64,000 nucleotides of DNA from Cyanidioschyzon merolae (taxonomy: Eukaryota): the NCBI GenBank assembly GCA_000091205.1, contig AP006497.2. One strand, written 5' to 3'. A program made the translations under genes and the position numbers. The notes beneath the pieces are model-generated. The model was not told the origin of the DNA and ran no database searches. It worked only from the letters and a program-made list of their open reading frames with translations. Positions 1,611 to 35,713 of this stretch are shown one piece after another (position 1 is the stretch's first letter; every line of letters starts with the position of its first letter).

Positions 1611-1612
1611 TG

Positions 1613-1700
1613 TGGTGCTGCGCGGGCTCGAACCGCGGACCTTCGTGTGGCAGCTATCTGCTTATCAGCACGATGCGATAACCATCTTCGCCACAGCACC
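1613..1700 (-). tRNA. Nuclear tRNA gene with a 14-nt intron. The anticodon reads GAU (Ile) if the intron is placed canonically after position 37.
   Basis: The reverse complement folds as a cloverleaf. Acceptor stem GGTGCTG/CAGCACC with discriminator A. D-arm GCGA-AGATGGTTA-TCGC. Anticodon stem TCGTG/CACGA with 21 nt between the halves, so a 7-nt loop CTGATA-A plus a 14-nt insert AGCAGATAGCTGCC at the canonical intron position. Variable loop AGGTC. T-arm CGCGG-TTCGAGC-CCGCG. Folded by eye only, so the isotype is tentative. Confidence 0.72.
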
Positions 1701-1840: not shown

Positions 1841-3745
1841 TTGGCGAATGCTTATAGTATAGAGCTTTGGCGGGGCTATCGTACCAGCTCAAAGCGGTTG
1901 GACTCTTTTGCTATTCTTCACATGCGGCGTGAGAACGCTTTCAGAGCGCTAGCTCTCTGCATAGCGCTCTGTATTCTAACGATAATTATTTGGGACCAGT
2001 ACTGGAACGTCCTGCTGCGACATGGCTACGGTACTACCTGGTTCCGGCGGCGTGCGGAACCGCATGAGCGCGCGCCGCATTCGCTCCAGGAAAACGACGA
2101 ATCCGTGGTTGAGCTTGAGGAATACGCGAGTCTCGGAGAACTGCTTTCAGCTGCAACGTGTACTTCGAATTCAGACTGCACCTATGGCCTAGTGTGTGTG
2201 AACGCCACTTGCACAGGGTGCTCTAGCACAGAACAGTGCAGCAATATTCAGCTTGACTGCGATGCCAACTCCAACAGATGTGTGCATAAGCCTCTCTCTA
2301 GATTTACTTGGCGCGATGGCCTTACTTTCGGTCTAATATTTGTTATCGCAGGGTTATCGAGCACAGGGGGCGTAGGAGGCGGCTTTTTATTCGTGCCTGT
2401 ACTCGTGCTACTCACTGGCTTTCAAGCAAGGCGCGCTGCTGCACTATCCCAAGCACTCGTAACTGGCGGCTCGGGTGCTAATGCCTTCTATGGTTTAATC
2501 ACACGCCACCCGTTTCGAGAACGCCCGCGAATCGACTATTACGTTGTGACTGTGTTCATGGCGACGATCCTCTGTGGGACGAGTGTTGGCGTCATCCTGA
2601 ATATACTCTTCCCGAATTTCTTCACGCTCTTCATGCTCGCGGTCCTCGTTGCGTACGTGTTTTACATTAGCATCAAGAAAGCCATTCAACTGTGGAAAGA
2701 TGAAAGAGCTGCATCGCGGAATGTTCGGGCCCAAGACCAAGGCGCCGATGCGGCTGCATCGAACGATGTGAACGCAGATGGCTCTTACGACGCATCGTGC
2801 CGTGGAACTGAGGCAGAGCATTGCACCGATGAAAGTTTCTCTATCCACAGTGACCAAATTGTAGACATGCAGGATACCGGTCACGAGCGTACATTTTCAG
2901 TCAAGTCCGAGTCAGTTCATTCTACCGAGGGCAATGAAGGCATGCGCACCTGGGCTTTCGGGCGCCTCTGGACCAGACTCATAGGTTTCTTTGATCCGAC
3001 ACTTCAATTCCACAGCGCAGACGAAATTATGAAGTATGAAAGTCGTCAGTATCCGCTCGGATCGCTTGTATATGTGCTCGCTATCTTTGCGTTTCTTGTC
3101 GTCTTGTCGGTATTCCGAGGTGGAGGCTCGAGCCGAGTGTCTGTGATAGGTGTGGAAAACTGCAGCGCAATTTTTATATTGCTATATATTGTTCAGGAAA
3201 TTGGACTTCTCTGTTTCTCGGTCGCCGCAGGTTTTCGTAATTTGCGCATGCATCTGGTCAAGTTACGTGTCGGTTATGAGTTTTACGAGCGCGACATGGA
3301 ATGGACGCGCAACAGAATTTTGTGGATTGCTCCGCTCATGATCTTTCTTGGAGCCGTTGGTGCATGGGTCGGCGCTGGTGGCTCTTTCATGTCGACTCCG
3401 ATTTTAATTGCTGGAGTCGGAATGGATCCGCTCGTGGTGCAAGCAACTGCGGGGTTCATGAACTTCGTGGCGGCTTTTTCCAGCGCGATTCAGTACTATG
3501 TGAATCATGAGCTACCGCTGGACTATGGCCTCGCGCTCGGGGGCACCGCTTTCCTTGGATCACTGTCTTTCGTTGTCTTTTTCAATAGGCTCGTGTACAA
3601 ATTCAAACTCCAAGCTATTCTTGTGTTTATCATGGCAGGGGTCATGTTCGGGGCCGCAGTTCTCAATATCTACGCGGGAGCGTTAGAGCTCAAAACAACA
3701 CTCAACCAAGGAAAGCCGTTCCCCTTCGGGAACATATGTGGGTGA
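1841..3745 (+). CDS. TauE/SafE-family (DUF81) anion-exporter-like membrane protein with two 4-TM repeats, a Cys-rich N-terminal segment and an acidic central loop.
   Basis: 634-aa ORF. Glycine-rich TM motifs 'GLSSTGGVGGGFLFVPVLVLL' and 'GAVGAWVGAGGSFMSTPILIAGVG' occur in two halves separated by a Ser/Asp-rich loop. A Cys-rich stretch 'CTSNSDCTYGLVCVNATCTGCSS' lies near the N-terminus. The true start may be the internal Met near 1922 (MRRENAFRALALCIALCIL). Confidence 0.65.
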   Translation: MANAYSIELWRGYRTSSKRLDSFAILHMRRENAFRALALCIALCILTIIIWDQYWNVLLRHGYGTTWFRRRAEPHERAPHSLQENDESVVELEEYASLGELLSAATCTSNSDCTYGLVCVNATCTGCSSTEQCSNIQLDCDANSNRCVHKPLSRFTWRDGLTFGLIFVIAGLSSTGGVGGGFLFVPVLVLLTGFQARRAAALSQALVTGGSGANAFYGLITRHPFRERPRIDYYVVTVFMATILCGTSVGVILNILFPNFFTLFMLAVLVAYVFYISIKKAIQLWKDERAASRNVRAQDQGADAAASNDVNADGSYDASCRGTEAEHCTDESFSIHSDQIVDMQDTGHERTFSVKSESVHSTEGNEGMRTWAFGRLWTRLIGFFDPTLQFHSADEIMKYESRQYPLGSLVYVLAIFAFLVVLSVFRGGGSSRVSVIGVENCSAIFILLYIVQEIGLLCFSVAAGFRNLRMHLVKLRVGYEFYERDMEWTRNRILWIAPLMIFLGAVGAWVGAGGSFMSTPILIAGVGMDPLVVQATAGFMNFVAAFSSAIQYYVNHELPLDYGLALGGTAFLGSLSFVVFFNRLVYKFKLQAILVFIMAGVMFGAAVLNIYAGALELKTTLNQGKPFPFGNICG

Positions 3746-6711: not shown

Positions 6712-7124
6712 CAGAGCTGCCCTGACACGAAAACACTACTGCGAGCGGAACGCTCGGAAAGCTCTTTGTGGACGCCCTCCAGAGTAGACACTCAAAAATA
6801 CGTCCAAGTCACAACCACGACGTCGTACGGACTAGACAAAAGAGGGCTCAAATGAAAATAAACATGCAGCCACTACAGTTTCTAAAGCTTTTCAACGACC
6901 AGACGAAATACACTGCGCTCTTATCTGTGCGAGGCGACTGGATGGTCGCTGTACACAGACAGTGCTCTCACAGAATTTTTTGACACCAATTTGTCGGAGG
7001 ATTAGTTGAATCAGCAGAGCCTTTCGCAGCGATGGAGACACCCTGATGACATCTAAGCAACTCTGGTGTGCGGGTATTGTAGTCAAGTCGAGTGTAGCTT
7101 CCATTTATACTCAGTAAAATAAAA

Positions 7125-8420
7125 ACATTCTACGACCATGGAGGGTATCGTGATACCCGCTACCAGATGCCTCCTAATCTCTTTTGACCTGCCGCCTGCT
7201 ATCAGTCTCATCCTCTCATTGTAAACGTCAAACCGGATGGGCTGCCTCACAAAATTCGCTCGCGTCAGCTCCTCCGGTCTCGTCTTCAGTACCCCACATT
7301 GTCTGGTATTGATGGCGGCATTGAAATCACGGTTAATGAACTCCGTGCGTTTGTTCCCTCTTGTGGAGCTCACTATTGGTAGAATTACTCGAACTCGTGC
7401 TTTCTGTGCCATTACAGTCTCGTCGTGCTCCCGCGGGACGAACACCTTTGTCTCACCTGCCTCCGCTCTTTTTATTCCACGTGATTTGCTCTTATTCGCT
7501 CGATGGTTGGCGATAAGAGGATTTTTTCGTTTTTTTCCGGCAGTCGGTGATGACGGGCCTCCAGGAGGATCGACTTCCCTGTCAATGCCTTCCCCACTGA
7601 TTGTTTTATTCTAAAAAATGGACACGCTTCTTTATGCTTTTATACGAAGATCTTCCCGAGAAAGAGGCACTGGTATAAGAAAGAGGAATCGTGCCCAGGC
7701 GTTACCATGCTGAAAGCTTCAGAGGTTCGCCCAGTGGAGCGACCATTACGTTCCACAATAGAAAACACTCGTACGATGGGGTTGAACCTCGGGCAGTGCG
7801 AAGGAGTAAAAAGCAGCTCTAGCCCTACAGAATCGGTAAAAGCTGGAACGCAAATGGAATGGTGCAATGTCATGTTGTCCAACTGAAAAACGTCGCCAGA
7901 GGTTAGGGAAAAGTCTCCGACGATTCGTCGAAGTGGCTGCTGTGTTATAAGTATTCTCTACGAGCGAAACTGAGGCCGCCAACACTATCTACTACAGCTA
8001 GAACAGATGATGGTGTCGTCTTTCTCTTGGAGATCCATCGTACACGCCTTGGGCTCCTTCTCCGCGAATACGCATATACGCCCCAACGGTTTCGTCCGAA
8101 GTTAGTCTCATCGACCGAAAAGACAAACCGATGTCCCTCTGCTTAATACCGGTCGCGCCGTTCCGGGAATTCGGTGGTTGCGATGTCCGTGGAAGATGGC
8201 GGAGCCTGAAACTGAAAAATTTTTGGGACTACATCCGAATTTTTTCAGGACAACACGCAAAAGCTGTTGAAAAAAGAGACGCTCGAGGCGGCTACCATCG
8301 ACACTTTTGCTCCCCATACCGTGACCAATGAGTCAGTTTCCACGATCGACCGCAAGCAGTCTTTTAGTATTTTGGTGTTTGGCGCAGAGCCCATGTTCTT
8401 GGTTCTTTCAGTGTTTCGTA
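7125..8420 (-). mobile_element. Degraded TnpB/Fanzor-like element, copy 1 (frameshifted; RuvC-III-like RDFNAAIN tail)
   Basis: Minus-strand ORF pieces 8108-8317, 7746-7985, 7640-7882 and 7083-7445 are homologous to pieces at 11775-12957 and 39431-40665. The tail reads 'EFINRDFNAAINTRQCGVLKTRPEELTRANFV'. Upstream is 'VPAFTDS...HCP', resembling the TnpB Y-T-S-Q/CxxC segment. The terminus is rc 'CTCCATGGTCGTAGAA' near 7129. Confidence 0.5.
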
Positions 8421-8500
8421 ATTATCTGAGTACTGTCGTATGACTCACCTCAAGGACGAATGCAAGTCCTCTTTGCACTGCGCGGTCAAGAATGTATTCA
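8421..8500 (+). repeat. Roughly 100-bp dispersed repeat, copy I1, abutting the 5' end of TnpB-like copy 1. Its mirror image is at 11587-11666.
   Basis: 'atctgagtactgtcgtatgactcacctcaaggacgaatgcaagtcctctttgcactg..aagaatgtattca' is about 75-85% identical to 40700-40820, 57000-57095 and 63040-63160. Confidence 0.6.
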
Positions 8501-9697
8501 TAGGAAATTCGCCTACGATCTAAACGGTACATCGCAAAGTTAGTTCGGTCGTCTGCAATACACTGTGTAGAACCACGCATTTACACTCAATGGGAGTGGC
8601 CCAGAACAGAGTTGAAAGAATAACCAAGACGCAACTTGGCGCCAGCAAATTTGGCACGCATTGTTTTCCAAGCGACTTCAGTCTTGTGCTGTCACTGGCT
8701 GTTGCCTTAATGAGGTTGATGGTATCGAAACCTCGTATATATATTAGCGCGCTTATTTTGGGAGTCATTGTCGTTGCAGTGGCCCTGCGCAGCTTGTCAA
8801 AGTTCTCCCATTCCACTCTAGTCTCGAGAGGGAACAGAGGGCTAGAGTTACACGCTTTTTATAACGTTTTCTGGAACTCAGGGACGCCACGTATAGCGCA
8901 AGAGCAACTATCCTGGCTCGAATCAAGCGGAATCAAAATCGATGCTCTGCACGTGTTCGCTTTCGGGACTAACCTGTCAGGGTTGGAAAGAATCGAGAAG
9001 TGGACAAGTGCACCAGTCGTATACGAGCAGTTGAGCCCGATCGGGAACGAGGAAGTTACGCTTGCGGCTCTACACAGGTTCTGCACAGTTGCGGAACTGA
9101 AAGGCAAAAGTGTCTTCGTTTTATACTTCCATCCAAAGGGTTCGTTTCATCCGAGCATTCGAAATGAAAAGTATCGACAAGCCGTTGGGCATTATGTGCT
9201 GCGAAAGCCCCAGGGTTGCCTGAGCGCCATGGCGCTTCAATCATGCGACGCTTGTAGTCTCCGCTTCTCAGAGTATCCGCACGCTCATTTTCCTGGGAAT
9301 ATGTGGTGGGCAAACTGTAGTTATATCTCCATGCTGTATGCGCCGGATATTCCGAGAACAGAGCTCAAGTCTGCAAAGCTTCCGGAATATTGCATAGGGC
9401 TCGGTCGGTTTGCTAGTGAACACTGGATTGGTTCGCACCCTCAACTAAGACCATGCGACTGCTTCCCCGTCACTGAGGACGCATTTTACTGGTATGGGTT
9501 CTCGGGTCTCGATGGTGTCCACCGTCTGATGAACAGTACGATGGACTGCAGGCGGGGGCCGCGTCCGAATATAATTGAGATTGCGCGAAAAAAAGGATAC
9601 GATGTCGAGCTTAACCTACGCTGCCGTGAAGTTTCGGCCGCAGGCGACAGACGCGCCTATGGCTTTGAAACTACGTCGAGCTAAGGCTCGCAATGGA
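8424..9697. repeat. Left arm of a perfect inverted repeat (arms 1274 bp, spacer about 692 bp, symmetry centre 10043.5)
   Basis: Every ORF in 8520-9684 has an identical mirror ORF on the opposite strand at coordinate 20087-x. My direct base comparison puts the arm boundaries at 8424/11663 (outer) and 9697/10390 (inner). Confidence 0.85.
8590..9684 (+). CDS. Type II membrane protein of unknown function, possibly a Golgi glycosyltransferase-like luminal domain. Copy 1 of 2.
   Basis: 364-aa ORF with an N-terminal TM anchor 'ISALILGVIVVAVAL' and a Cys-containing globular domain with 'HFPGNMWWANCSY'. An identical ORF is mirrored at 10403-11497. Confidence 0.55.
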   Translation: MGVAQNRVERITKTQLGASKFGTHCFPSDFSLVLSLAVALMRLMVSKPRIYISALILGVIVVAVALRSLSKFSHSTLVSRGNRGLELHAFYNVFWNSGTPRIAQEQLSWLESSGIKIDALHVFAFGTNLSGLERIEKWTSAPVVYEQLSPIGNEEVTLAALHRFCTVAELKGKSVFVLYFHPKGSFHPSIRNEKYRQAVGHYVLRKPQGCLSAMALQSCDACSLRFSEYPHAHFPGNMWWANCSYISMLYAPDIPRTELKSAKLPEYCIGLGRFASEHWIGSHPQLRPCDCFPVTEDAFYWYGFSGLDGVHRLMNSTMDCRRGPRPNIIEIARKKGYDVELNLRCREVSAAGDRRAYGFETTSS

Positions 9698-10389
9698 CAC
9701 GGTATAGAAAAATCAAACCGGTTTTGAAAATTGCGATCCGGTGCGCCGCTCGAATTATTCATCGACATTCGATTTTATGCTCAGTCGGAGTGCCGTTTTA
9801 CTCCTGTATTCTCTAAAACCTTGGTACGCTCGCTACGGGAAGTCTTTAATGCGTTTCTGGCGTGCAAGTCTTATTTCCTGGGGAGTAATTCCATTCCGAC
9901 ATCACTTAGACACACGCCTATTTTGCATCTTCGGATCACTCAAGACATCCACACGGGTCTCGTCCGTTCGCTACGGTGGCCTGCTCCGGTCTTCTTTTAC
10001 TGGAATAGGGCTGTTTTCCTCCATTAAAAATACTTTCCGCATGGATCCTCTGAGATATATATTCAAGGCTTTAAAACCCCACTTGGTAGTTGACAGGTTC
10101 AGTTTATGATACTCTCACTAGCGAGATTTCACACTCGGAAGCTGTTTCCTTCAAAGAGAACACTGGCTGCACCTTACGAGAGTGGGGCTTAGTCGCGCAA
10201 CAGCACTATGATTTGAAGCTCACCAACGTAGGGAAAGGCTGTAGCGCGCACTGTCAGCGCGACATAATTCCAAAACCTTACTCTTTTCGAACGCTTTGCT
10301 GGTTCCGAAAATATGAATTGCCCCATTCGAGTACGATCCCAACAACTGCTTTTGCACTTCAAAATACCTGAAGACGCAACTGCGCCGCA

Positions 10390-11663
10390 TCCATTGCGAG
10401 CCTTAGCTCGACGTAGTTTCAAAGCCATAGGCGCGTCTGTCGCCTGCGGCCGAAACTTCACGGCAGCGTAGGTTAAGCTCGACATCGTATCCTTTTTTTC
10501 GCGCAATCTCAATTATATTCGGACGCGGCCCCCGCCTGCAGTCCATCGTACTGTTCATCAGACGGTGGACACCATCGAGACCCGAGAACCCATACCAGTA
10601 AAATGCGTCCTCAGTGACGGGGAAGCAGTCGCATGGTCTTAGTTGAGGGTGCGAACCAATCCAGTGTTCACTAGCAAACCGACCGAGCCCTATGCAATAT
10701 TCCGGAAGCTTTGCAGACTTGAGCTCTGTTCTCGGAATATCCGGCGCATACAGCATGGAGATATAACTACAGTTTGCCCACCACATATTCCCAGGAAAAT
10801 GAGCGTGCGGATACTCTGAGAAGCGGAGACTACAAGCGTCGCATGATTGAAGCGCCATGGCGCTCAGGCAACCCTGGGGCTTTCGCAGCACATAATGCCC
10901 AACGGCTTGTCGATACTTTTCATTTCGAATGCTCGGATGAAACGAACCCTTTGGATGGAAGTATAAAACGAAGACACTTTTGCCTTTCAGTTCCGCAACT
11001 GTGCAGAACCTGTGTAGAGCCGCAAGCGTAACTTCCTCGTTCCCGATCGGGCTCAACTGCTCGTATACGACTGGTGCACTTGTCCACTTCTCGATTCTTT
11101 CCAACCCTGACAGGTTAGTCCCGAAAGCGAACACGTGCAGAGCATCGATTTTGATTCCGCTTGATTCGAGCCAGGATAGTTGCTCTTGCGCTATACGTGG
11201 CGTCCCTGAGTTCCAGAAAACGTTATAAAAAGCGTGTAACTCTAGCCCTCTGTTCCCTCTCGAGACTAGAGTGGAATGGGAGAACTTTGACAAGCTGCGC
11301 AGGGCCACTGCAACGACAATGACTCCCAAAATAAGCGCGCTAATATATATACGAGGTTTCGATACCATCAACCTCATTAAGGCAACAGCCAGTGACAGCA
11401 CAAGACTGAAGTCGCTTGGAAAACAATGCGTGCCAAATTTGCTGGCGCCAAGTTGCGTCTTGGTTATTCTTTCAACTCTGTTCTGGGCCACTCCCATTGA
11501 GTGTAAATGCGTGGTTCTACACAGTGTATTGCAGACGACCGAACTAACTTTGCGATGTACCGTTTAGATCGTAGGCGAATTTCCTATGAATACATTCTTG
11601 ACCGCGCAGTGCAAAGAGGACTTGCATTCGTCCTTGAGGTGAGTCATACGACAGTACTCAGAT
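10390..11663. repeat. Right arm of the perfect inverted repeat
   Basis: Reverse-complement identity to 8424-9697. Confidence 0.85.
10403..11497 (-). CDS. Type II membrane protein of unknown function, identical copy 2
   Basis: Identical 364-aa translation to 8590-9684, on the opposite strand. Confidence 0.55.
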   Translation of the reverse strand: MGVAQNRVERITKTQLGASKFGTHCFPSDFSLVLSLAVALMRLMVSKPRIYISALILGVIVVAVALRSLSKFSHSTLVSRGNRGLELHAFYNVFWNSGTPRIAQEQLSWLESSGIKIDALHVFAFGTNLSGLERIEKWTSAPVVYEQLSPIGNEEVTLAALHRFCTVAELKGKSVFVLYFHPKGSFHPSIRNEKYRQAVGHYVLRKPQGCLSAMALQSCDACSLRFSEYPHAHFPGNMWWANCSYISMLYAPDIPRTELKSAKLPEYCIGLGRFASEHWIGSHPQLRPCDCFPVTEDAFYWYGFSGLDGVHRLMNSTMDCRRGPRPNIIEIARKKGYDVELNLRCREVSAAGDRRAYGFETTSS

Positions 11664-12957
11664 GGTTGAACAATACTGGAAGAAATAGGGATATGCGTCC
11701 AGCGCAGTAAACCGATATTCTCGAAGACTGCCCGCTGTCAATGCTAGAAAACGACCCGTTGATTACCATACGGAATGCAGAAAGCGACGATAGTAGCCGC
11801 CACGAGTATCCCTGTTTCTCAACAGCGTGTTCGTGTAGTCCTCATAACACCAGGATTCAGTCGCAAAAAAGTCCGATTTACGTCACGGCCATCTTCCACC
11901 GAAATCGCAATGACAGCGTGCACGGAACGCCGCGATCGATATGAAGCAAAGGGATGTCGGTTTGTTTCAGTCGATGAAACTTCTTTGGTACGACACCCTA
12001 GGGGCGTCTATTGGTAATATGCGGAGAGGAAGCCCGTTGTTTGTACGATCGAACTCAAAGAGAATGAAGATATCTTTTTTTCTAGCTTCAATGGATTCAT
12101 TCGGTGGCCTCGGTTTTGCTCGTGGTGATGGCTCGTACAAGAGCACAAATCAATTCGGTGAATCATTGAAGAATTTCCCCTGACGTCTGGTGACGTCCAT
12201 CTATTGAAAAATGTGACATTGCACCATTCCCCTTGGGGGCGAGCTTTTGCCGATTCTATCAGGGAAGAGCTGCTTTTCATTGCTCCGTGCTCTACGTGTT
12301 CCAAACTATTCGAAAGAGTGTTTCCTATCGTGAAACGTAATGATCGCTCCACTGGCCGAGTCGCTGAAGCGTTCAGCGCACGGTGACTCCGGGGTGCATT
12401 CGGTTATTCTTGCGCAAGTGCTTCTCCGTCAGAGAAGGCCCTAACCTAAGGGCATGAGGAAGTGCTTTCATTTTCAAAAATAAAAAATCCAAGGGAAAGT
12501 TATGGAAATGGAACTCAAGTATCCTAGAAGCCCGATGTCGCCGGCAGCGTGAAAAATCGAAAAAATTCTTTCCTCGCTGACCATCGAGCGAAGAAGAGCA
12601 AGATATGAGGAGAAAGAAGAGGGAGATATGAGAGAAAAAGTATTTTCCCGACGGGAAAATCGCTAGACTGTAGTGACACCGAGGGCAAGAGTTCGAGGAC
12701 GCCTTCCACTGGTGTGTTCAAGCAGAGGCAAGAAACGCATGGAGTTCGCGACCCGAGACTTCGACGCCGCCATCAATATTAGGAGATGTGCGGTGCTGAA
12801 GAGGAGACCTGAGGAGCTGACGCGAGCGAACTTTGTGGGGCAGCCCCTCAAGCTCGAAGTGGACACGGAGAAGCTGAAACCGATAGCGAGGGTCGGTCAA
12901 AAAATGGCTCGGAGGCGTCTGCGGATGGGTAGATATATTTATCCTCCATGGTTATGA
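11664..12957 (+). mobile_element. Degraded TnpB/Fanzor-like element, copy 2 (frameshifted)
   Basis: ORF pieces 11741-11944, 11775-12017, 11941-12183, 12204-12386 ('IAPCSTCSKL', CxxC-like) and 12673-12957 ('EFATRDFDAAINIRRCAVLKRRPEELTRANFVGQPLKLEV'). Its 3' end 'cctccatggttatgaa' matches the other copies. Confidence 0.5.
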
Positions 12958-13892
12958 AATGCTTATTGTTTCAGTGACCGTTATGTGTACAATGCCGAGA
13001 ATATCATTGTCGGCTCTTTCTGGCAATGCGTTGCAGTTGAGTCAATCATACTGAACAACTACTACCCGTCGTAAAATAATGGAGAGAGCATATCTTTATC
13101 TTACAAGCAGAATCCAATGGATAGAACGAAAAACTCTAGAATAGGTCGAGCAATGCTGCATCTTTCGTTGCTTCCGAGTTGCTGCGAATGAGCTGTTTGT
13201 CGGCTCTTTGCATCACTGCAGATTCTCTGCAGCCGTCACGCCCGTCTGAGCCGAGTATTGACGTAGAGCAGCTATATTATCGACGAACCAGTCAAGGTTT
13301 TCGGTACTGGAAAATATCTTTTGCTACTTCGAGCGATCGGATGCACTCTGTTTGAAGAGCCTCACAGGTGGCTTTCCAGGATTTTCTTCTGAATGGCTCT
13401 CGGTTTCATTGTAGACTGACGCGTGACCGGACTCTAGCTATCCGAACCAATCGACTCTACGTGGGTATTTCAAACTTCAAATCTAAACTCGAAGAAGCTA
13501 AAAACATGCCAAAGAAAAACGTGACACTTGGTCAGGTCAGCTGAGTACCTGATCCCTTTGAGCGCACAGTTTTCTACAAGACCATCTCCAGAACCCAATT
13601 TTGTTGCTCAAAAAAACCCACTTTTTGGTTAAGAAGCTGCGAGCTTGACTGCAGACTGTATCGACGAACTGAGGAACTCTCACTTGTACAGCATGATAGC
13701 GCACAGCTTTCGATGCGCAGCGCTTTGAGCAGCCTAGAGCCGAGTGGATAGCCAGAAGCATGATGATTGCACGTTGCATCGCGCAATGATATTGGTAAAA
13801 TATTTGCTCTGTCTTTGTTCGTATAGTTTTGTTGTGGTCTAGTTTGTTTAATTCACCTGTATAAGAAAGCGTACGGATAGTTTCCGCAGTGG

Positions 13893-16148
13893 ATGGAAGC
13901 ATACCTCTCAGCACCTTCACGACCGAGTGTGACGCTTTCTGAATTCTCTGGTCGCCGGGTTTGCCAGACGAAACGGAACGATTCTCTTCTGGGCGCTCGG
14001 GGGAGGTTTGCACCGGGCACGTGGGAGCGCGTAGTGCTCGGGCGTCGCGGTGGTTCCCGTACAGTCAGTCGTTTGCCTCAAGTGCGTGCAACAGCTACTG
14101 CTGGGGTATCGCTAGTGAAGCCAAAGCAGACGGGGAACGCGTTCGCTGACCTCTGCATCAACAGCATTCGTTTCCTGGCTGTCGACGCCGTAGAGAAGGC
14201 GAACTCTGGACACCCTGGAGCGCCCATGGGTCAGGCCCCGCTCGCGTTTACTCTTTGGGACAAGTATCTGCGCTTTAACCCCAAGAATCCGAACTGGGTC
14301 AATCGCGATCGTTTTGTGCTAAGCTGTGGTCATGGGTCTATGCTTCAGTATGCTCTGCTTTACCTTTATGGATACGATCAACCAACAATGGACGATATCA
14401 AAACTTTCTGTGAATTTGGTTCTTGCGCTACGAGTCACCCCGAGAACTTTCTTCTTCCTGGCGTTGAAGTGACCACAGGGCCTCTGGGCTCTGGCGTGGC
14501 ACAGGCTGTTGGTCTCGCTATCGCCGAAGCGCACCTCGGAGCAATGTTCAACACCCCAGAGGAGAAGCTGATTGACCATTACACCTACTTCATTATGAGT
14601 GATGGATGCATGCAAGAAGGAGTAGCTGCAGAGGCCGCATCTTTGGCAGGCCATTTGGGACTGGGGAAACTAATCGGGTTTTTCGATGATAACAAGATAA
14701 CTTACGATGGACCAACAGACCTTGCGTTTAGTGAGGATGTCGTATCTAGATTCAAATCGTATAACTGGCAGGTAATTAGCATTGCAGATGGAAACACAGA
14801 CATCGACAACATCTCGAAAGCAATCGAGGAGGCGCAAAAAGATCTGACACGACCATCACTAATCATAGTTCCGACAACAATTGGTTTTGGCTCACCAAAA
14901 CACGCGAACAAAAGGACAGCACATGGAGAACCTTTCGGATCTGACGAAGTCAAGGCAACGCGGGAGAATCTTGGATGGAAATATGCTCCTTTCGAGGTCC
15001 CAGAGGAGGTGCTGAAACATTGTCGCCGCAAGATCCAAGAGGGGGCACGTCTTGAACAGGAATGGAATGAGCTCTTGCAGCGGTACAAGAGTAAGCACCC
15101 AGAACAGGCTGCACTATTCGAGCGGATGGTGATTCGCAAGGAGAAGAGCCCTGGTTGGGAAAAGGCCCTCAAGGATTGTGCGGCAAAGACAGGCTCCATG
15201 GCTACGAGGCAAGTCTCCGGCGCAATGCTCAATGCGCTCGCTGCGGTGATGCCGGAGATCATCGGGGGATCTGCAGACCTGGCCCCTTCGAACAACACGC
15301 TCCTGAAGGGCTTTGGCGATTTCTCTCGTAACAACTACAAAGCCAAGAATATGCGCTTCGGTGTCCGCGAGGCAGCGATGACTGCGATCACCGCGGGCAT
15401 CAAGCTCCACAACACTGGACTGTTTCCCTACTGCGCGACTTTTCTGATATTCACCGATTACGCCCGGGGCATGCTCCGCCTTGCTGCCCTCTCCGAGGCG
15501 GGAATCACGTTCATTACAACGCACGACTCCGTCGCCTTAGGCGAGGATGGCCCCACGCACCAGCCCATCGAGCATCTGGCTAGCCTGCGAGCTATGCCGA
15601 ATGTGTACACGTTCCGTCCGTGCGATGCGAACGAGTGCGCAGCTGGCTATGCGCTCTCGATCCGGCATGATGACAAAGTCGTTCTGTTGGCGCTCACGCG
15701 ACAGAAGACGAACAAGCTCGAGACATCCTCATACGATGGTGCCCTGCGCGGAGCGTACGTGGTTTCGGATAATAGCCCTGCGGGCAAGCACCCGGATGTG
15801 ATCCTTATCGGAACAGGCTCCGAGGTGGACGTCGTCGTGGAGGCCGCCGATCAACTACGAACTAGCGATGCTTTGAATGTGCGCGTGGTGTCGATGCCCT
15901 GCATGGAGCTCTTTGAGGACCAGGATGCAGCTTATCAAGAGTCTGTGCTTCCTGCTGCCGTGCCTCGCAGCCGGAGGGTCGTATGTGAGGCTGCCTCAAG
16001 CTTCGGCTGGTCGAAGTATGCGGATCACTTTGTGTGCATCGATCGCTTCGGAGCGTCCGGCAAAGGGCCTGACCTGATGAAGTACTTTGGGATCACGCCG
16101 TCGAACGTAGCGAAGAAGGCGCGAGAGGCTGCAGGAAAAGGCGTTTGA
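13893..16148 (+). CDS. Transketolase-like protein, copy A, with substitutions at catalytic and cofactor residues in aa 145-345 and an N-terminal extension
   Basis: 751-aa ORF, identical to copy B outside aa 145-345. Within that patch 'SMLQYALLYLYGY' has Tyr where His is conserved, 'IMSDGCMQEG' replaces the GDG motif with SDG, and 'ITYDGPTD' has Pro where His is conserved. Confidence 0.8.
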   Translation: MEAYLSAPSRPSVTLSEFSGRRVCQTKRNDSLLGARGRFAPGTWERVVLGRRGGSRTVSRLPQVRATATAGVSLVKPKQTGNAFADLCINSIRFLAVDAVEKANSGHPGAPMGQAPLAFTLWDKYLRFNPKNPNWVNRDRFVLSCGHGSMLQYALLYLYGYDQPTMDDIKTFCEFGSCATSHPENFLLPGVEVTTGPLGSGVAQAVGLAIAEAHLGAMFNTPEEKLIDHYTYFIMSDGCMQEGVAAEAASLAGHLGLGKLIGFFDDNKITYDGPTDLAFSEDVVSRFKSYNWQVISIADGNTDIDNISKAIEEAQKDLTRPSLIIVPTTIGFGSPKHANKRTAHGEPFGSDEVKATRENLGWKYAPFEVPEEVLKHCRRKIQEGARLEQEWNELLQRYKSKHPEQAALFERMVIRKEKSPGWEKALKDCAAKTGSMATRQVSGAMLNALAAVMPEIIGGSADLAPSNNTLLKGFGDFSRNNYKAKNMRFGVREAAMTAITAGIKLHNTGLFPYCATFLIFTDYARGMLRLAALSEAGITFITTHDSVALGEDGPTHQPIEHLASLRAMPNVYTFRPCDANECAAGYALSIRHDDKVVLLALTRQKTNKLETSSYDGALRGAYVVSDNSPAGKHPDVILIGTGSEVDVVVEAADQLRTSDALNVRVVSMPCMELFEDQDAAYQESVLPAAVPRSRRVVCEAASSFGWSKYADHFVCIDRFGASGKGPDLMKYFGITPSNVAKKAREAAGKGV

Positions 16149-16447
16149 GGACGCCGCGGAAGCAGCGGTTCTGTGCCGGGCAAAGATTTTCAAGCGGCGT
16201 TTGCTGCGGCAACGCTCTGCGGAATGGGAACGCTTTGGAAGAGAGTATTCTTGCAGGGTCTAAACACGGCTGTAGTATCCCGCGTGATCACGTTGGGCCT
16301 CATCGTTCTCGTTCGCAAATGCGTTCCGTAGAACGTGCTGTTCTCTAGGGTAACAACGGCTGGGTACGCGGCAGCTGCATCGCCTCTGGGCTGGAGCGGG
16401 TCCTGCGGTTTTGAACCGTTGTCCACCTCGAAGGTTTTCTCCCGCCG

Positions 16448-16963
16448 ATGGCGTCCGGGTTGGAGCACCTCCAACGGGCGCTCTGGAGACGGGGCCTTCC
16501 GTGCTTCAGCCTTGACTGGCTCACGCAAGCACACGAACGTTACCCAGACGTTGAAGAACTCGTAACGTTTGCTCTGGAAACAGTCGACTTTGAGGACCGG
16601 CGCGTCGTCGAGAGAGGCAGCCTTCCTGCGGAGGCACAGCCAGCGCTGCTCTCCAAGGAAGACGGCGTGGTCGTTCCCATACGCGGGGAGCTTCTCGTTT
16701 TTCAGGTGCTGGACGTTGCGGACGTCAGCGCCGCTGAGGAAAAAGCGGATCTTCCAAGCGGGCCCGAGCGCACTCTGAAGCTTCTGCTGACGGACGGTCG
16801 CCTCGAGTTGGCCGCTATCGAGGACGCTCCGATACCGGACCTCGGAACGAGTCTCCCTCGTTGCACGAAAGTCTGTGTGCGGAAACCTATGCTGCTGCAC
16901 GGGTTGCTGGTGCTGCGTCCCGAGAACACGTCCGTAGTGAGGCCTCGGCCGAGCTGCATATAG
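16448..16963 (+). CDS. RMI1-like DUF1767/OB-fold protein, copy A. Possibly only part of the gene.
   Basis: 'LKLLLTDGRLELAAIEDAPIPDLGTSLPRCTKVCVRKPMLLHGLLVLRPENTSVV' resembles the RMI1/TDRD3 OB-fold signature. The region is GC-rich with long ORFs on both strands, so the exact gene model is uncertain. Confidence 0.4.
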   Translation: MASGLEHLQRALWRRGLPCFSLDWLTQAHERYPDVEELVTFALETVDFEDRRVVERGSLPAEAQPALLSKEDGVVVPIRGELLVFQVLDVADVSAAEEKADLPSGPERTLKLLLTDGRLELAAIEDAPIPDLGTSLPRCTKVCVRKPMLLHGLLVLRPENTSVVRPRPSCI

Positions 16964-17641
16964 AAGGAGTGGCTGCGGCTGCCGCTTGGGCGTATCGCAA
17001 ACGAGTTCTTGGTGATGCATCGGGCGAGCAGCTGCCGCGTCCAGCTCGAGTGTCGGACCGAATATCGCCTGTTTGATGATGTATCTGCGTGGAGCTTTCG
17101 AGATGGATACGCTTGTACGAAAAATGATCGTAGGTGTGGCATGCCTGCATGCTCGAGACACCGGCAGGATGCGTTCTACGACTGTGCCTCGGAGGCTCGT
17201 GCAGAACGCTGCCGAGACGTGCACACTGGCGCTGTGGCGCTTTCGGGCTACGGAAGTCTGGAAAGAGCGTTCTCCAAGCTTTGCACAACGCCTATGCCGG
17301 TACCTGCAAGACCACGCTGTGTCGTGAGGCACCCCTGGTTCCCATGGGTCATGCTTCAGAGCGCGAGTGAAGCGCCGCGGATGCTGCTCCATAGCAGAAT
17401 AGGTGCGGTGCTAGATCGAACTAGCGGCCTGATCTAATATGCACGCTGGTGCGTGAAAGTCTTCCATGCACATTTTGGGATATGGAATCGAGTGCGTAGC
17501 AGAAGATTGCGCAAGACTGTTTCGATGCATGCGAGTGCGCACGCTGTGACGCAGCAGGGGATTTGCGAGCCTCGGCTGGCAGGGCCCCCAGCCGGCGTCC
17601 ACGAGGGAATAGCTGAGCTGTCCCGTCTGTGTGTGGCGTTC

Positions 17642-17646
17642 GCAGT

Positions 17647-17685
<39 letters not shown>

Positions 17686-17687
17686 GC
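17642..17687. repeat. (GCAACA)n / (GCAGYA)n hexanucleotide microsatellite
   Basis: 'gcagtagcagcaacagcaacagcaacagcaacagcaacagcagcg'. Copy B (31942-31987) differs by two substitutions. Confidence 0.9.
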
Positions 17688-18714
17688 GCTCGACTCCAGA
17701 GCAAGCGCTCACTGAAGAAACGCCACCGGGTAGGGCATCTATGCAGCGAACCATAATCCTCAGAGCGAAGTCTGGAGACTGGTGTGTGGAACACGGTGGA
17801 TCTGGTGCGGAATGATATCTGCTTCCGTAAATGCCGATTGGAATCGAGACATTTAGGGATCCCCTATAAGATTCAAGGATCCTGCGCTACTGAAGAACAA
17901 CTTGCGGGGACTCACCGAGGATCCATCGTCGTGTCCGAACGATCGCGGCGAAGGATGCAAACGCATGATCTCCCCAGTCACGCATAATGCCACGGACGGA
18001 AGGTGCATAAGATATTTCGATTCCAGTTCTATTCGTGCACGCATGAGCTCCCTAGTCACGCATAATGCCACGGAGTAAAAGTACACAACGTATCTAGATT
18101 CCGGTTTACTTCTTGCGCTTCTTGTTCATACTGTTGCAAGGCGAAATCGTCGGTGTTCGCAGTTATTCACGGGTATAACGCCGAAATTTGCGATACCCTG
18201 ACGCTTACCGGTGGGCGGGAGCCCTCCTGTGGACACACTCGGCGATACTCGGTGCATGGGCTGTAGATCACAGGCGGACGATCGTTAAAGGTCGCTGTGA
18301 TTTTAGTGTTGCCCATACCTCTACGCGTGGAAGTCATCCCCAGAGGGCGGCTCTCGAGCGCGCTGCCCTCGGTGACTCGGAGCGGCGCATGGTCTCCGCA
18401 CTGGTAGCGATGATGCAGGAGCATCACTCGAGCGCAACCTGTGTACGCCCCTCTCGGGCACCAGTCTGCGTAAATCTACCAGAAAAATATTCGATCGTCT
18501 CTGCCGTAGGTGTCTTGCTCGACAGTGCGGTCAGCGCGGTGCATTGGATGCGCGGAGCTGCCCCTGGGATGGTCCGCTTGGTTTCGGGTTGTGCGCGGGT
18601 CTTCCAGTGACCCCTCGCGTCCACAGAAGCATCAGGCCGGTGTCACGTAGAGCGCTCCAGTTGCTGCGAGCCTGTGGATCCTGCACTAGCCGAGCACCGA
18701 CTGGGCGCTCAAGG

Positions 18715-21036
18715 TTACAGCGGGGATCGTCCAGTGTCTGTATCACGGTGGTAGTCGAAGGGCTCATTGAAAACGCATCCAACTTGACCCCGTAGATATC
18801 TCTCCATGAGATCCCTGGTTGAAGCGTTGAACTCTTCCGAAATGGGGCGGCCGAAGTAGCGGCTTTCGTTCAGCTGCTTTCGGACACGCTTTGCGAGCAC
18901 CTTTCCGAGTTCGACGCCCCACTGGTCGAATGAATTGATGTCCCAGATGAAACCCTGGACTGCCGTGCGATGCTCATAGAGCGCGAGCAACTGGCCAGTG
19001 GCGTACGGATCCAGCCTCTGCAGCAGCAGCGTCAGACTCGGCCTGTTGCCAGTCGTCACGAGATGCGGAATCAGCCATTCGGGGCGGCCCTCTGCACGAC
19101 ACTCCGCCGCTGTTTTGCCGTACGCCAGAGCATCTGGCTGGGCGAAAAAGTTCGCCATGAGCTCGTCTGCATTGCTGACCGGCTCACCCTCGATGCACAG
19201 CGGGTACTGGGACTCGATGAAGCCAATAAAATCGCAGGGTACCGTCTGCCCCATATGCAGCAGCTGGAAAAACGAGTGCTGGCCGTTGGTGCCGGGCTCT
19301 CCAAAGTCGATCTCACCGACCGCGTAGTCGACGTCGTCGCCGCGCAGCGTCACGTGCTTACCGTTGCTCTCCATGTCAACCTGCTGGATATGAGCGGGGA
19401 ACTTGAGAAGCGCCTCTGCGTAAGGATGCAGCGCCCGGCTCTTGTAGCCGAGAAAAGACAGGTTCCAGACGCCGAGAAGCCCCATGATCACCGGCAAGTT
19501 CCCCGCCAGCGGACTAGCAACGTCGTAAAAGTTCGCATCAACAGAGCGCGCGCCCTCTAGAAATCGCAGGAACGTGGGGAAGCCGTACTGAATCGAGAGC
19601 GGCAGCGCTCCGACCGCAGAGCACACGGAATACCTACCCCCGACCCAGTCCCAAAACTCAAAAGTGTTCCGCGGGTCGATCCCGAACTTCTCCACCATCG
19701 GCACGTTGCTGCTGCAGGCAACCATGTGGAGCCGCACGACCTCATCCGAGCGCCCCATTTCGGACCAGAGCCATTCGCGCATCGCCCGTGCATTCAGAAG
19801 CGTCTCCGCGGTTGTGAACGACTTGCTCACGATCACTATCAGCGTCTCCTCCGCCGACAGATCCTGCGTGCAGCGCTTGATATCCACAGGATCCACGTTG
19901 CTGAGAAAATGAAGGTGCCGCCCCCGCGCCGCCTCAAACGCCTCCGGATCCGTCCGAAACGCCTCGTGCACAAAGTCTGGCCCCAGATACGAGCCGCCAA
20001 TCCCCACAGCGATGACGCTGCGAAGCGGCTTCCCCGTGGCGCCGCGATGCTCCCCGCTGCGCACCCGCTCGCTGAACTCACGCACGTGATCGAGCACCCG
20101 CCACACGTCACGAACAACGTCCGTACCGTCGACAACAAGGCTTGCGTTCCGCTCCGCGCGAAGCGCCGTATGCAGCACGGCGCGCCGCTCGGTCACGTTT
20201 ATGTGCGCGCCGGACTGCATCGCGCGGATCTTATCCACCAAACGCGCACGACGCGCTAGCGCGAAAAGTAGCTCAATCGTATCCTTCGTCACCCGCTGCC
20301 GCGAGTAGTCGAGGTAGATCCCGTCATACTCAGCGCGCAGAGAACGCACGCGATCGACGTCCTGCATCAGCTCCCGCAGGTGCAAACGATCGATCTCAGA
20401 TGCATGCTCCACCAGCCGTCTCCACTCGGCAGTCTCCGAGATGAGGACGTAGTCGGTCGGCACCGGCAGTGGTGGCGGCGTTTCCGAAGGAAGCCGCCTC
20501 CCAACGGTGTAGCTCCCGCGAACGTCCCCCGCTGTGCAACGCGGAAACGCACGTCTCCGCAAAAGCCCAGCAGACCCGTGGTGCGGGTACAGCGCCCTGG
20601 ATCGGCGCGATCCAGCTACCCCACCCCGAAGCGGCCACCCAGGCACGACAAAGGCGCTCATCAGGCGAACACTCTCCCAGCAAGCAAAGACCAGGTGCAC
20701 ACTATTGCGCACTGCACCGCGCAGCGAGCTTTCAACTGGCGTCCGCTTCTTGGGCGATTCGCCTCCGGCACGCGCGGCAGGCGGGTGCAGCTGCGAGGGC
20801 GCGGCCAACGGATCAGCGACTCGTTGATAGACTTTCACCTGAATTGCGTTCCATACGCAGGTGCGTGCCATCAACTGCTCTTTCGCCGCTGATGAGAGAC
20901 GCGTTCCGCGTGCGTGCCTTAGCAGAAATAAAAAATCTAGGGGAAGGTATGGGCATGGAAGTCGGAGATCAAAGGCGGTCGCCATGGCCGGCTTCTTGAG
21001 GGAAAGGACGAAAGAAATCCTGGTCTCGCCGACCAT
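18715..21036 (-). CDS. Glucose-6-phosphate isomerase, copy A. The ORF start is probably too far upstream.
   Basis: PGI core from about aa 195 ('[51 protein letters not shown]...'). The first ~35 aa of the ORF (20930-21036) are antisense to a TnpB-like element fragment. The true start is likely an internal Met (aa 56 or 126), followed by an Arg/Ser-rich presequence-like stretch. Confidence 0.85.
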
Positions 21037-21413
21037 GGAGCGAAGAAGCGCAAGTGACGAAGAAGAAGAGAGGCACAGGGGCGGCAGGCGAGAAGAGGGG
21101 TTCGCCCGATGAGACTGCGACGAGACTGTACTGGGAGAGGGGGCACGAGATCGAGGAACTCTCGCAATATCGAGTTCATGCAGAGGAAATATAGAGATGG
21201 AGTTCGTGACCTGGGACCTCTATGCCGCCATCAATATCAGGGAATGTGCGGTTCTGGAGACGAGGCCCGCAGAGCCGACGCGATCCAGCATTGTGGGGCA
21301 GCCCCTGAGGCTTGAAGTGCACAAGGCGAAGCTGCAGCCGATGGCAGGGGCTGGTCAGGAACTGCTGGGAGGCGTCTGGGACTGGATATATATTTACCTA
21401 CCATGGTTGTGGA
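20930..21413 (+). mobile_element. 3' fragment of the TnpB/Fanzor-like element, copy 3A. Its terminus is exactly the right boundary of the 7.5-kb repeat.
   Basis: DNA homology to 12470-12957 ('agaaataaaaaatctaggggaaggtatgg...', 'ctcgccgaccatggagcgaagaagcgcaag'). The tail ORF reads '[36 protein letters not shown]' and the end is 'tatatatttacctaccatggttgtgga'. Confidence 0.55.
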
Positions 21414-30448: not shown

Positions 30449-30747
30449 GGACGCCGCGGAAGCAGCGGTTCTGTGCCGGGCAAAGATTTTCAAGCGGCGT
30501 TTGCTGCGGCAACGCTCTGCGGAATGGGAACGCTTTGGAAGAGAGTATTCTTGCAGGGTCTAAACACGGCTGTAGTATCCCGCGTGATCACGTTGGGCCT
30601 CATCGTTCTCGTTCGCAAATGCGTTCCGTAGAACGTGCTGTTCTCTAGGGTAACAACGGCTGGGTACGCGGCAGCTGCATCGCCTCTGGGCTGGAGCGGG
30701 TCCTGCGGTTTTGAACCGTTGTCCACCTCGAAGGTTTTCTCCCGCCG

Positions 30748-31263
30748 ATGGCGTCCGGGTTGGAGCACCTCCAACGGGCGCTCTGGAGACGGGGCCTTCC
30801 GTGCTTCAGCCTTGACTGGCTCACGCAAGCACACGAACGTTACCCAGACGTTGAAGAACTCGTAACGTTTGCTCTGGAAACAGTCGACTTTGAGGACCGG
30901 CGCGTCGTCGAGAGAGGCAGCCTTCCTGCGGAGGCACAGCCAGCGCTGCTCTCCAAGGAAGACGGCGTGGTCGTTCCCATACGCGGGGAGCTTCTCGTTT
31001 TTCAGGTGCTGGACGTTGCGGACGTCAGCGCCGCTGAGGAAAAAGCGGATCTTCCAAGCGGGCCCGAGCGCACTCTGAAGCTTCTGCTGACGGACGGTCG
31101 CCTCGAGTTGGCCGCTATCGAGGACGCTCCGATACCGGACCTCGGAACGAGTCTCCCTCGTTGCACGAAAGTCTGTGTGCGGAAACCTATGCTGCTGCAC
31201 GGGTTGCTGGTGCTGCGTCCCGAGAACACGTCCGTAGTGAGGCCTCGGCCGAGCTGCATATAG
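30748..31263 (+). CDS. RMI1-like DUF1767/OB-fold protein, copy B
   Basis: Identical to 16448-16963. Confidence 0.4.
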   Translation: MASGLEHLQRALWRRGLPCFSLDWLTQAHERYPDVEELVTFALETVDFEDRRVVERGSLPAEAQPALLSKEDGVVVPIRGELLVFQVLDVADVSAAEEKADLPSGPERTLKLLLTDGRLELAAIEDAPIPDLGTSLPRCTKVCVRKPMLLHGLLVLRPENTSVVRPRPSCI

Positions 31264-31952: not shown

Positions 31953-31985
<33 letters not shown>

Positions 31986-35336: not shown

Positions 35337-35713
35337 GGAGCGAAGAAGCGCAAGTGACGAAGAAGAAGAGAGGCACAGGGGCGGCAGGCGAGAAGAGGGG
35401 TTCGCCCGATGAGACTGCGACGAGACTGTACTGGGAGAGGGGGCACGAGATCGAGGAACTCTCGCAATATCGAGTTCATGCAGAGGAAATATAGAGATGG
35501 AGTTCGTGACCTGGGACCTCTATGCCGCCATCAATATCAGGGAATGTGCGGTTCTGGAGACGAGGCCCGCAGAGCCGACGCGATCCAGCATTGTGGGGCA
35601 GCCCCTGAGGCTTGAAGTGCACAAGGCGAAGCTGCAGCCGATGGCAGGGGCTGGTCAGGAACTGCTGGGAGGCGTCTGGGACTGGATATATATTTACCTA
35701 CCATGGTTGTGGA
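35230..35713 (+). mobile_element. 3' fragment of the TnpB/Fanzor-like element, copy 3B (duplicate of 20930-21413)
   Basis: Identical to copy 3A. The sequence diverges from copy A immediately after 'ccatggttgtgga'. Confidence 0.55.

Follow-up and report, generated by a model that had tools for sequence, protein, structure and literature searches.

On primate sex chromosomes, ampliconic and gene-bearing palindromes are kept alike by arm-to-arm gene conversion. Breaks at transposon ends can be repaired by copying ectopic sequence, as in P-element and Tc1 gap repair, and alternative transposition makes inverted duplications, as described for Ac/Ds in maize. Cloning in E. coli destabilises long palindromes that have a short spacer, and these undergo asymmetric deletions near their centre. 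Cyanidioschyzon merolae, for its part, is prized for its minimal, low-redundancy and finished eukaryotic genome and for its efficient homologous recombination. This alga harbours CMe-1A, a Fanzor1 element (Fanzor1 being a eukaryotic TnpB homologue) whose copies are old, and Mariner/Tc1 elements carrying a Fanzor1 gene, such as PUl-1, have also been reported (Bao & Jurka 2013, PMC3627910). The locus described here adds a genuine case to a known type of structure and reveals no new mechanism.

The locus belongs to nuclear chromosome 15 of C. merolae 10D and was analysed within a window of 64,000 nucleotides. In the reference, the left arm (8424-9697, + strand) and the right arm (10390-11663, - strand) are exact reverse complements over 1274 of 1274 bp, and they enclose a 692-bp spacer (9698-10389) that displays no internal symmetry and within which no homology was detectable. 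A perfect inverted match of 1274 bp cannot be of chance origin. Outside the arms, positions 7165-8423 are collinear with 12921-11664, the register being kept to within 2 bp, with an identity of about 64-84% per 50-bp bin and about 70-72% overall, and this homology becomes undetectable beyond about 7130 and 12955. The identity drops from 100% to about 70% in a single step, at 8423/8424 on one side and at 11663/11664 on the other. A previous sequence-only reading of this DNA had reported identical inverted arms around a 692-bp spacer, each encoding the same 364-aa membrane protein, and flanks that are homologous but diverged beyond an abrupt step; these observations are all borne out, the same 364-aa ORF being present in both arms. 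Rfam and tRNA scans of the 6-14 kb region gave no matches, and a promoter and terminator scan stayed at chance level, its bacterial models being irrelevant to a eukaryotic host.

The diverged flanks correspond to two decayed chimeric transposon relics facing each other, E1 (7121-8423 for the part left unhomogenised in 10D, - strand) and E2 (11664-12959, + strand, with homology to CMe-1A). Their layout consists of an IS630/Tc1-type transposase pseudogene of about 1 kb and of a last 0.5 kb derived from Fanzor1, in which the middle of the ORF has been deleted. More precisely, E1 contains a DDE_3 pseudogene at about 7600-8420 (- strand), detected by Pfam in E1 only (PF13358, E=6.9e-7, 29.7 bits against a gathering cut-off of 28.6), and an internally deleted Fanzor1/CMe-1A tail from 7121 to about 7600 (- strand), while the element consensus exhibits HTH motifs, DETSF and a DD35E-like spacing. 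By blastn (E down to 1e-47), E1 positions 7523-7594 and 7249-7395 align with nt 898-969 and 2849-2998 of the CMe-1A consensus, and E2 positions 12460-12564 and 12681-12922 with nt 869-969 and 2840-3084, at 77-79% identity in the case of E2. In the same line, the element tail matches at the protein level (E 1e-32) a family nearly identical to the published CMe-1 protein. The Fanzor1 link is based on these published CMe-1/CMe-1A sequences and not on profiles, searches for TnpB with Pfam, NCBIfam and two profile searches of PDB sequences (using the tails, the consensus and full-length relatives) having returned no matches; the AlphaFold model of a 479-aa relative reached a pLDDT of 43.9. Stop codons are numerous in all frames of E1, no copy within the window has an intact ORF, and the Fanzor remnant comprises only the equivalents of the C-terminal 110 aa or so and the N-terminal 45 aa or so, themselves interrupted by stop codons, with no ORF combining the split RuvC residues (D...E...RD) and the zinc finger of Fanzor/TnpB proteins. 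The term TnpB-like, used in the sequence-only reading, is therefore appropriate for the last 0.5 kb of the elements and inappropriate for the DDE_3 transposase pseudogene of about 1 kb.

When the ends of five copies are aligned, no terminal inverted repeats and no TA or target duplications are seen. E1 and E2 share about 70% identity and are no closer to each other than to the other copies of the window, the relationships between copies being star-like. The possibility that they are sister copies of an old duplication was considered and rejected, not a single derived site being shared. Since their identity is no higher than with other copies and no derived sites unite them, E1 and E2 look like independent old insertions rather than the outer parts of an old duplication. 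The idea of an older palindrome of elements, in which the perfect one would be nested, is thus unsupported; the ancestral repeat stops exactly at the element tips (see below). A neighbouring, near-perfect 7.5-kb duplication running from transketolase to PGI likewise stops exactly at an element end.

The two copies of the gene carried by the arms lie at 8590-9684 (+ strand) and 10403-11497 (- strand) as ORFs of 364 aa. The encoded protein, a DUF8361 member, corresponds exactly to both CMO119C and CMO120C, two annotated genes of C. merolae 10D, each arm carrying one of the two. The first 40 codons of the ORF are probably not translated, the start being more likely M41 (8710 in the left copy, 11377 in the right one, for a product of 324 aa), because orthologues are 325-326 aa long and the left copy of other strains has no upstream ATG. 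The protein associates a type II membrane anchor with a GT-A-like domain of Rossmann-like fold. Among 43 aligned homologues, no DxD motif is invariant, and the conserved residues are Y179, H181, K183, G184, R196, N237, E277, W279, D290 and several cysteines. The gene can be regarded as encoding a putative Golgi/ER glycosyltransferase of the GT-A type, present as two identical transcribed copies. Its expression, which the sequence-only reading had proposed to check, is attested by the poly(A) tails found in contigs L013 and L014 at position 10083, where contig L001 also ends. A literature search did not find any paper naming CMO119C or CMO120C.

In C. merolae as in its sister species, the DUF8361 gene is located between the genes for transketolase and a short-chain dehydrogenase. 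Cyanidiococcus and another species have a single copy at this syntenic locus and are devoid of E elements there, and when the E element was compared by tblastx with the syntenic loci of four relatives, no match was obtained. The right copy has kept the ancestral orientation, with its 5' end toward transketolase as in the sister species, whereas the left copy is in the derived one, as judged against the synteny in contigs L002-L005. For comparison between strains, 21 independent contigs of 10D-like algae were used, seven being anchored in E2 (L001, L007, L010-L013, L025) and six in E1, so that gene copies flanked by E1 and by E2 were each recovered repeatedly. A fold-back of the assembly over one true gene copy, put forward in the sequence-only reading as the case that would refute the palindrome, draws only on the general risk attached to such structures; it is excluded by the repeated recovery of both kinds of copies in independent assemblies, and its residual probability is negligible given, besides, that the two flanks are distinct and syntenic with the sister species and that the hairpin centre (D-X-D', see below) is found within single contigs. 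At this locus, a nuclear gene that is normally single-copy has genuinely been duplicated in inverted orientation. Being built from short reads, the contigs are unable to establish that a single wild genome has both E1-type and E2-type copies, and none of the listed samples yielded both. The caution expressed earlier about misassembly, unneeded for the duplication itself, is still justified for the centre of the palindrome, since the arm/spacer junction of 10D is absent from all 21 other contigs.

The structure common to the 10D-like wild strains runs from the element tip through the gene and a 500-bp segment, called D, to a 192-bp core spacer, called X (9698-9889), with arms of about 1.58 kb and the repeat boundary lying exactly at the element tips. 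X makes up the entire spacer in these strains, and three contigs (L010, L020, L023) contain the complete D-X-D' arrangement. In 10D, D is present only downstream of the right gene copy (9890-10389, - strand), where the 3' UTR and its poly(A) site at 10083 lie within it; the left arm lacks these innermost 500 bp. The junction between gene and D is found in all 21 contigs and that between gene and X in none of them. Both the boundary and the spacer of the palindrome thus differ between strains. At the end of the left arm, a 9-bp sequence, CGCAATGGA (9689-9697, + strand), marks the junction of the 500-bp difference and forms a direct repeat with CGGAATGGA, the sequence at the end of segment D in the other strains; the two junctions, in which CGCAATGGA and CGGAATGGA are each followed by CACGG, fit a deletion between direct repeats. 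A flip-flop inversion of the spacer was also considered and is not inferable, any D-X-D' hairpin having both D-to-X junctions, which short-read contigs cannot phase.

The second difference concerns the left end of the repeat. The 5'-terminal 200 bp or so of the left element (8424-8625, - strand) lie inside the arm of 10D and are identical there to the E2 version (11462-11663, + strand), the latter being identical in the seven E2-anchored contigs. By contrast, the six E1-anchored contigs (L008, where it occupies 9855-10033, and five others) all display a native left module, which shows 52 differences, among them a 25-bp indel; identity to the 10D arm is about 69% over 8424-8615 and reaches 100% from 8626 onward. 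The remaining E1 sequence is 99.8% the same in 10D and in the other strains. At site 8625/11462, both arms of 10D have a C where the 16 contigs covering it, from either side, all have an A. Two arms that agree with each other within a lineage and differ from those of other strains, together with a 202-bp module homogenised only in 10D, are the signature of concerted evolution. At its outer end, the homogenised segment stops in a 13-bp identity block, ACAGTACTCAGAT, one of the six longest identical runs between E1 and E2. Based on this comparison, the step at 8423/8424 is inferred to be the end of a recent, 10D-specific gene-conversion tract directed from the right to the left arm. The sequence-only reading had suggested such a tract and the comparison of isolates, and the cross-strain data now support it through the native left module and the shared C, the repeat of the other strains starting at the element tip.

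The same reading had also mentioned a recent inverted duplication beside elements already in place. Taken as one event without subsequent conversion, it would make the step the duplication breakpoint. Although E1 and E2 are indeed old and related only by family membership, and the arms are identical, this explanation leaves the in-register homology straight through 8423/8424 unaccounted for, and it is contradicted by the boundary of the other strains, located 200 bp further in despite an E1 that is 99.8% the same. It is very unlikely for the step, while it may well describe the first origin of the palindrome.

The 10D state appears to be derived rather than ancestral, by a parsimony argument made without an outgroup. 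A reversed polarity would make the boundary at 8424 ancestral, the left end of the wild strains having been overwritten from a third E copy and their arms extended by copying D. With a donor at another site, homology would end at the element tip, which would account for the wild difference stopping at 8615-8625, and the family is multicopy, with about 150 CMe-1A copies (PMC3627910). This scenario is nevertheless improbable: two independent tract ends would have to coincide within 14 bp at 8424-8436, an extra conversion would be needed to bring the A to 11462 without moving the differences 10 bp away (8608-8615), and the native left module is 69-75% identical to E2, E3 and a solo copy, which is typical of any pair of copies, and no donor came to light.

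For both 10D-specific features, the tract and the missing left D, the evidence comes from a single reference sequence, and the absence of D could reflect either a true deletion or a cloning artefact. This reference was produced from Sanger shotgun data and finished by PCR on BACs and subclones, an earlier assembly having contained more than 20 kb of misassembled sequence (PMC1955436). Considering that long palindromes with short spacers suffer asymmetric central deletions in E. coli, the left D could have been lost during cloning or PCR. An artefactual origin could even be extended to the step at 8424 and the C at 8625, with a real palindrome whose true 10D version would be the wild structure (1.58-kb arms from the tips, 192-bp spacer). 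In favour of this, the 10D junction between gene and X and the E2-type module next to E1 occur in none of the 21 other contigs, and if the left arm were a chimera made from the right one, the shared C would follow as well. However, ordinary 2-3 kb clones running from E1 into the gene exclude the palindrome centre, the native module is 31% different from the E2 type, so that an assembler could not confuse the two, and a PCR chimera by template switching at a 13-bp block within 70%-identical DNA is unlikely. An artefact is more plausible for the deletion of D than for the 202-bp module and, as an explanation of all three features, is rather unlikely.

Taken together, a real inverted gene duplication followed by a conversion and by the loss of the left D, both specific to 10D, is the probable account of the locus. 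Each DUF8361 copy abuts the 5' tip of a dead relic, and a purely inferential origin would be a break at the E1 tip, whose repair, primed on the inverted homeologous tip of E2, would have copied the adjacent gene and D before end-joining at X. Such a course would account for the exact coincidence between the start of the ancestral repeat and the element tips. In 10D, a right-to-left conversion would then have replaced the terminal 202 bp of E1 by those of E2, bringing the C to 8625, and its resolution in the 13-bp identity block would have generated the step from 100% to 70%. The left D would have been lost between the two 9-bp direct repeats, shortening the arms to 1274 bp and lengthening the spacer to 692 bp. 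That the relics themselves created the palindrome, through a break made at the E1 tip by the transposase or by a Fanzor-type nuclease of the then-active family and repaired on E2, is a speculative extension that is more probably wrong than right by some distance. If true, dead Tc1/Fanzor1 elements would have seeded a self-homogenising gene palindrome, and the same process may have shaped the neighbouring 7.5-kb transketolase-to-PGI duplication.

The locus indicates that, even in the low-redundancy genome of C. merolae, a host gene can be duplicated as a palindrome, and that conversion tracts would extend into 70%-identical flanking DNA and halt at short identity blocks. In practical terms, none of the other available sequences of the locus agrees with the reference, the discrepancy being a 500-bp segment and the replacement of 200 bp, which makes it advisable to check the locus before targeting CMO119C/CMO120C or mapping reads, the two copies being indistinguishable by short reads in 10D.

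With respect to the elements, E1-E5 resemble CMe-1A in that their 3' 0.5 kb matches nt 869-969 and 2840-3089 of its consensus at 70-79% identity, in that their copies are old as well, and in that their translated tail keeps the RDFNAAINI motif (RuvC-III). They differ from it by the deletion of about 1.9 kb of the Fanzor ORF, including the RuvC-I and RuvC-II regions, and by their 5' 1 kb, which is a Tc1/IS630-type transposase pseudogene. This arrangement, with a DDE transposase in 5' and Fanzor1 in 3', is that of PUl-1, except that terminal inverted repeats and TA duplications are unrecognisable and that both genes are dead. As in gap repair and in the Ac/Ds cases, the breakpoint coincides precisely with a transposon terminus, and what has been duplicated is the DNA flanking the homologous end of another copy in inverted orientation; unlike them, no active transposase is evident in C. 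merolae, the link being drawn from the geometry only. Compared with the primate sex-chromosome palindromes, the arms are roughly a thousandfold smaller (1.3-1.6 kb), contain a single gene and sit in a compact genome described so far as haploid and with very few repeats. Support for repeated rather than one-off conversion is thin in C. merolae, where one tract and one linked substitution may reflect a single event. The likeness to the primate palindromes lies in the nearly 100% identical inverted arms, the unique spacer, the expressed gene and the substitution common to both arms within a lineage. What sets the C. merolae palindrome apart is that homeologous transposon relics form its outer flanks, which makes the spread of a conversion tract into them visible.

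In the C. merolae 10D reference, a gapless comparison of 8424-9697 with 10390-11663 shows one segment to be the exact reverse complement of the other (1274 bp, 0 mismatches), with 692 bp between them. Outward of these arms, the two sides can still be aligned globally in the same register at ~70% identity, on the left from 8423 to ~7165 and on the right from 11664 to ~12921, where the homology ends. The 692-bp spacer has no internal symmetry. Both arms contain the same 364-aa ORF, whose product corresponds by exact look-up to BAM81491.1 and BAM81492.1, the hypothetical proteins CMO119C and CMO120C of C. merolae 10D, meaning that the annotation of the finished genome already included both copies. 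Together with the ORF check, these comparisons bear out the description of the arms, spacer, ORFs, and diverged flanks made in the sequence-only reading. A literature search by name found no paper on CMO119C or CMO120C, and palindromes or inverted duplications are not mentioned in the completed-genome paper (PMC1955436).

A protein-guided scan of JGI metagenomes, complemented by exact look-ups of cluster members, recovered 21 distinct contigs, whose identity to the window is 99.1-99.9%. They may come from a Yellowstone study in which "10D-like" Cyanidioschyzon was reported in JGI poly-A metatranscriptomes. E2 anchors seven of these contigs and E1 another six, E2 and E1 being the decayed transposon relics that flank the palindrome on the right (11664-12959) and on the left (7121-8423), respectively. 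Both copies therefore exist outside the reference, which excludes the fold-back assembly artefact envisaged in the earlier reading. Besides, several contigs carry poly(A) tails ending at position 10083, identifying them as transcript assemblies and the gene, whose expression had been left to be checked, as transcribed. Two transcript contigs with poly(A) tails, and the end of a third, place the poly(A) site at 10083 (-), which gives a 3' UTR of ~320 nt, and right-copy transcript contigs begin as far upstream as 12217, within E2. At 8779/11308, several environmental contigs have A in the E2-side copy versus G in the E1-side copies, a non-homogenised arm-to-arm difference if both copies come from one genome.

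Downstream of the gene, each of the 21 contigs continues with D, the 500 bp that in 10D are found beside the right copy only (10389 down to 9890), and three contigs run uninterrupted from D through the 192-bp core spacer X (9698-9889) into inverted D. The wild structure is thus E1 - gene - D - X - D' - gene' - E2, its arms measuring ~1.58 kb and its spacer 192 bp. The 10D gene-X junction, CGCAATGGA joined to CACGG, occurs in none of the 21 contigs, the wild D-X junction being CGGAATGGA joined to CACGG. The 10D state hence corresponds to a deletion of left D between two 9-bp direct repeats, which match at eight of nine positions, and the palindrome centre in the reference is atypical. Palindromes with a short spacer are prone, in E. 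coli, to asymmetric deletions near their centre. The 10D genome was sequenced by the Sanger shotgun method, and PCR with BACs as template served to close its gaps (PMC1955436). The missing left D could therefore be an artefact, with a roughly even chance of being a cloning or finishing error rather than a real deletion.

The E1-anchored contigs are 99.8% identical to 10D through E1 up to 8423, then show 52 differences, including a 25-bp indel, over 8424-8615, and are again identical to 10D from 8626 on. Their left copy hence keeps a native element end, which aligns at 69-75% with the 5' ends of E2, of E3 (another copy in the window), and of a solo copy. The two copies in these strains are identical from 8616 onwards, a position that is the 5' tip of the element as judged from the end of homology to E3 and to the solo copy. 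In addition, both arms of 10D have C at position 8625/11462, where 16 of 16 covering contigs, from either side, have A. The simplest account is that the ancestor had A in both arms and native element ends, that C would then have been gained on the right arm in the 10D lineage, and that a right-to-left conversion tract would finally have extended over 8424-8625 or more. Such a tract has an invisible inner end, as the arms were already identical there, and an outer end at the margin of ACAGTACTCAGAT, a 13-bp block identical in E1 and E2 and among their six longest identical runs in 1.5 kb. Such a block is the expected resolution point for a recombination intermediate in 70%-identical DNA, which supports conversion. 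The reverse polarity, with ectopic conversion in the wild lineage instead, is possible but requires a larger number of events, and two tract ends that coincide. The converted module, which is the element's 5'-terminal ~200 bp inside the left arm (8424-8625; E2 counterpart at 11462-11663), is much less likely than the missing left D to be an artefact, given that clones covering it need not span the palindrome centre and that its native and E2-type versions differ by 31%. On the basis of the native module in the contigs, the C/C site, and the 13-bp block, the gene-conversion origin earlier proposed for the step at 8423/8424 holds for the outer 200 bp.

The closest homologues of the duplicated gene, of 325-326 aa and 68-69% identical, come from Cyanidiococcus yangmingshanensis and another cyanidiophyte, in whose genomes it is single-copy. 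Its neighbours in both are transketolase on one side and, on the other, a short-chain dehydrogenase, with TBCA, a WD-repeat gene, and TauE next in line, an arrangement that recurs unchanged in the window. As the right-hand copy, 10403-11497 (-), has the ancestral orientation, the copy added is the left-hand one. A cyanidiophyte that is more distant has two tandem direct copies of this DUF8361 gene, with 67% aa identity, at the same locus, representing an independent, older, and non-homogenised duplication. Nearby, a 98-aa ORF, an unrelated TnpB/Fanzor fragment, matches Pfam Cas12f1-like_TNB (E 2.5e-7). On this contig, the gene pair and the ORF take up L006:287-583 and L006:8535-10969.

The repeat family of the diverged flanks, here named E, has a length of ~1.5 kb, and its other copies are full-length at 39457-40907, restricted to the 3' part at 20910-21413 and 35210-35714, and restricted to the 5' ~180 bp at 63075-63252 (the solo copy). 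Stop codons are abundant in every copy. E1 in one frame exceeds the gathering score of Pfam DDE_3, and in the majority consensus helix-turn-helix motifs can be read along with DETSF and with a DD35E-like spacing that ends in NPIE, so that the 5' kilobase is an IS630/Tc1-mariner-type transposase pseudogene. The RDFNAAINI motif that gave rise to the "TnpB-like" label, for which profile searches brought no confirmation, is located in the 3' 0.5 kb. A protein search with the consensus tail led to a large cyanidiophyte ORF family, whose longer members show GADPGNTN, VDEFRTS, and NRDFNAAINI, and which is nearly identical to the published Fanzor1 protein CMe-1 (Bao and Jurka 2013, PMC3627910). When the published CMe-1A consensus was compared directly with the window by blastn, it matched E only at consensus nt 869-969 and 2840-3089, with 70-79% identity. 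E is thus a chimera, in which a Tc1-type transposase pseudogene is joined to a Fanzor1 element lacking ~1.9 kb of its ORF; the former label fits the tail, but not the main part of the relic. No terminal inverted repeats of E were seen, nor was any E found at the syntenic loci of the relatives. An old inverted pair had also been proposed, and a duplicated origin of E1 and E2 is rejected: they are 68-75% identical by segment, similar to either versus E3, E4 (a further window copy), or the CMe-1A consensus, and have no derived sites in common. A 76%-identical copy of the CMe-1A 5' region (nt 90-630, the TE-N2_CMe part) at 62424-62959 sits 115 bp from the solo module, which therefore also occurs beside internal sequence of another kind and may represent a terminus that transposons share.

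Other repeats were observed in the window. A 7.5-kb direct duplication (13899-21413 and 28199-35713, copies 14.3 kb apart) holds transketolase, an RMI1-like gene, and glucose-6-phosphate isomerase, and its right end falls together with the 3' end of an E relic (21413/35713). Its copies are 100% identical except for two mismatches and one patch within transketolase (14273-14990; ~64-86% identity per 250-column bin), both transketolase ORFs being intact (751 aa), and this mosaic identity suggests conversion there too. Each copy includes two tandem 78-bp units that are 78% identical mutually (17961-18116 and 32261-32416). Another dispersed family, of 66-75% identity, is found at 718-816, 24001-24099, and 56278-56376, and at 23970-24361/56251-56635. 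Finally, a 96-bp block at 1605-1700 is 89.6% identical to the sister species, far above nearby coding DNA, and ARAGORN reports an odd tRNA at 1612-1700 (-), its anticodon undetermined in the output. Intron-containing or permuted tRNA genes are known in C. merolae, and this block may be one of them.

Regarding the origin of the palindrome, the wild, ancestral repeat has one limit at the tips of E1 and E2, which are inverted and homeologous, and the other at a site that is arbitrary. The E1 and E2 tips have nine identical terminal bases. A hypothetical break at the E1 tip, with repair primed on the E2 tip, copying outward through the gene and D, and rejoining by end-joining, would yield exactly the wild geometry. 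Alternative transposition with two element ends is a related possibility. The locus is a real feature, and adds a further example to a known kind of structure.
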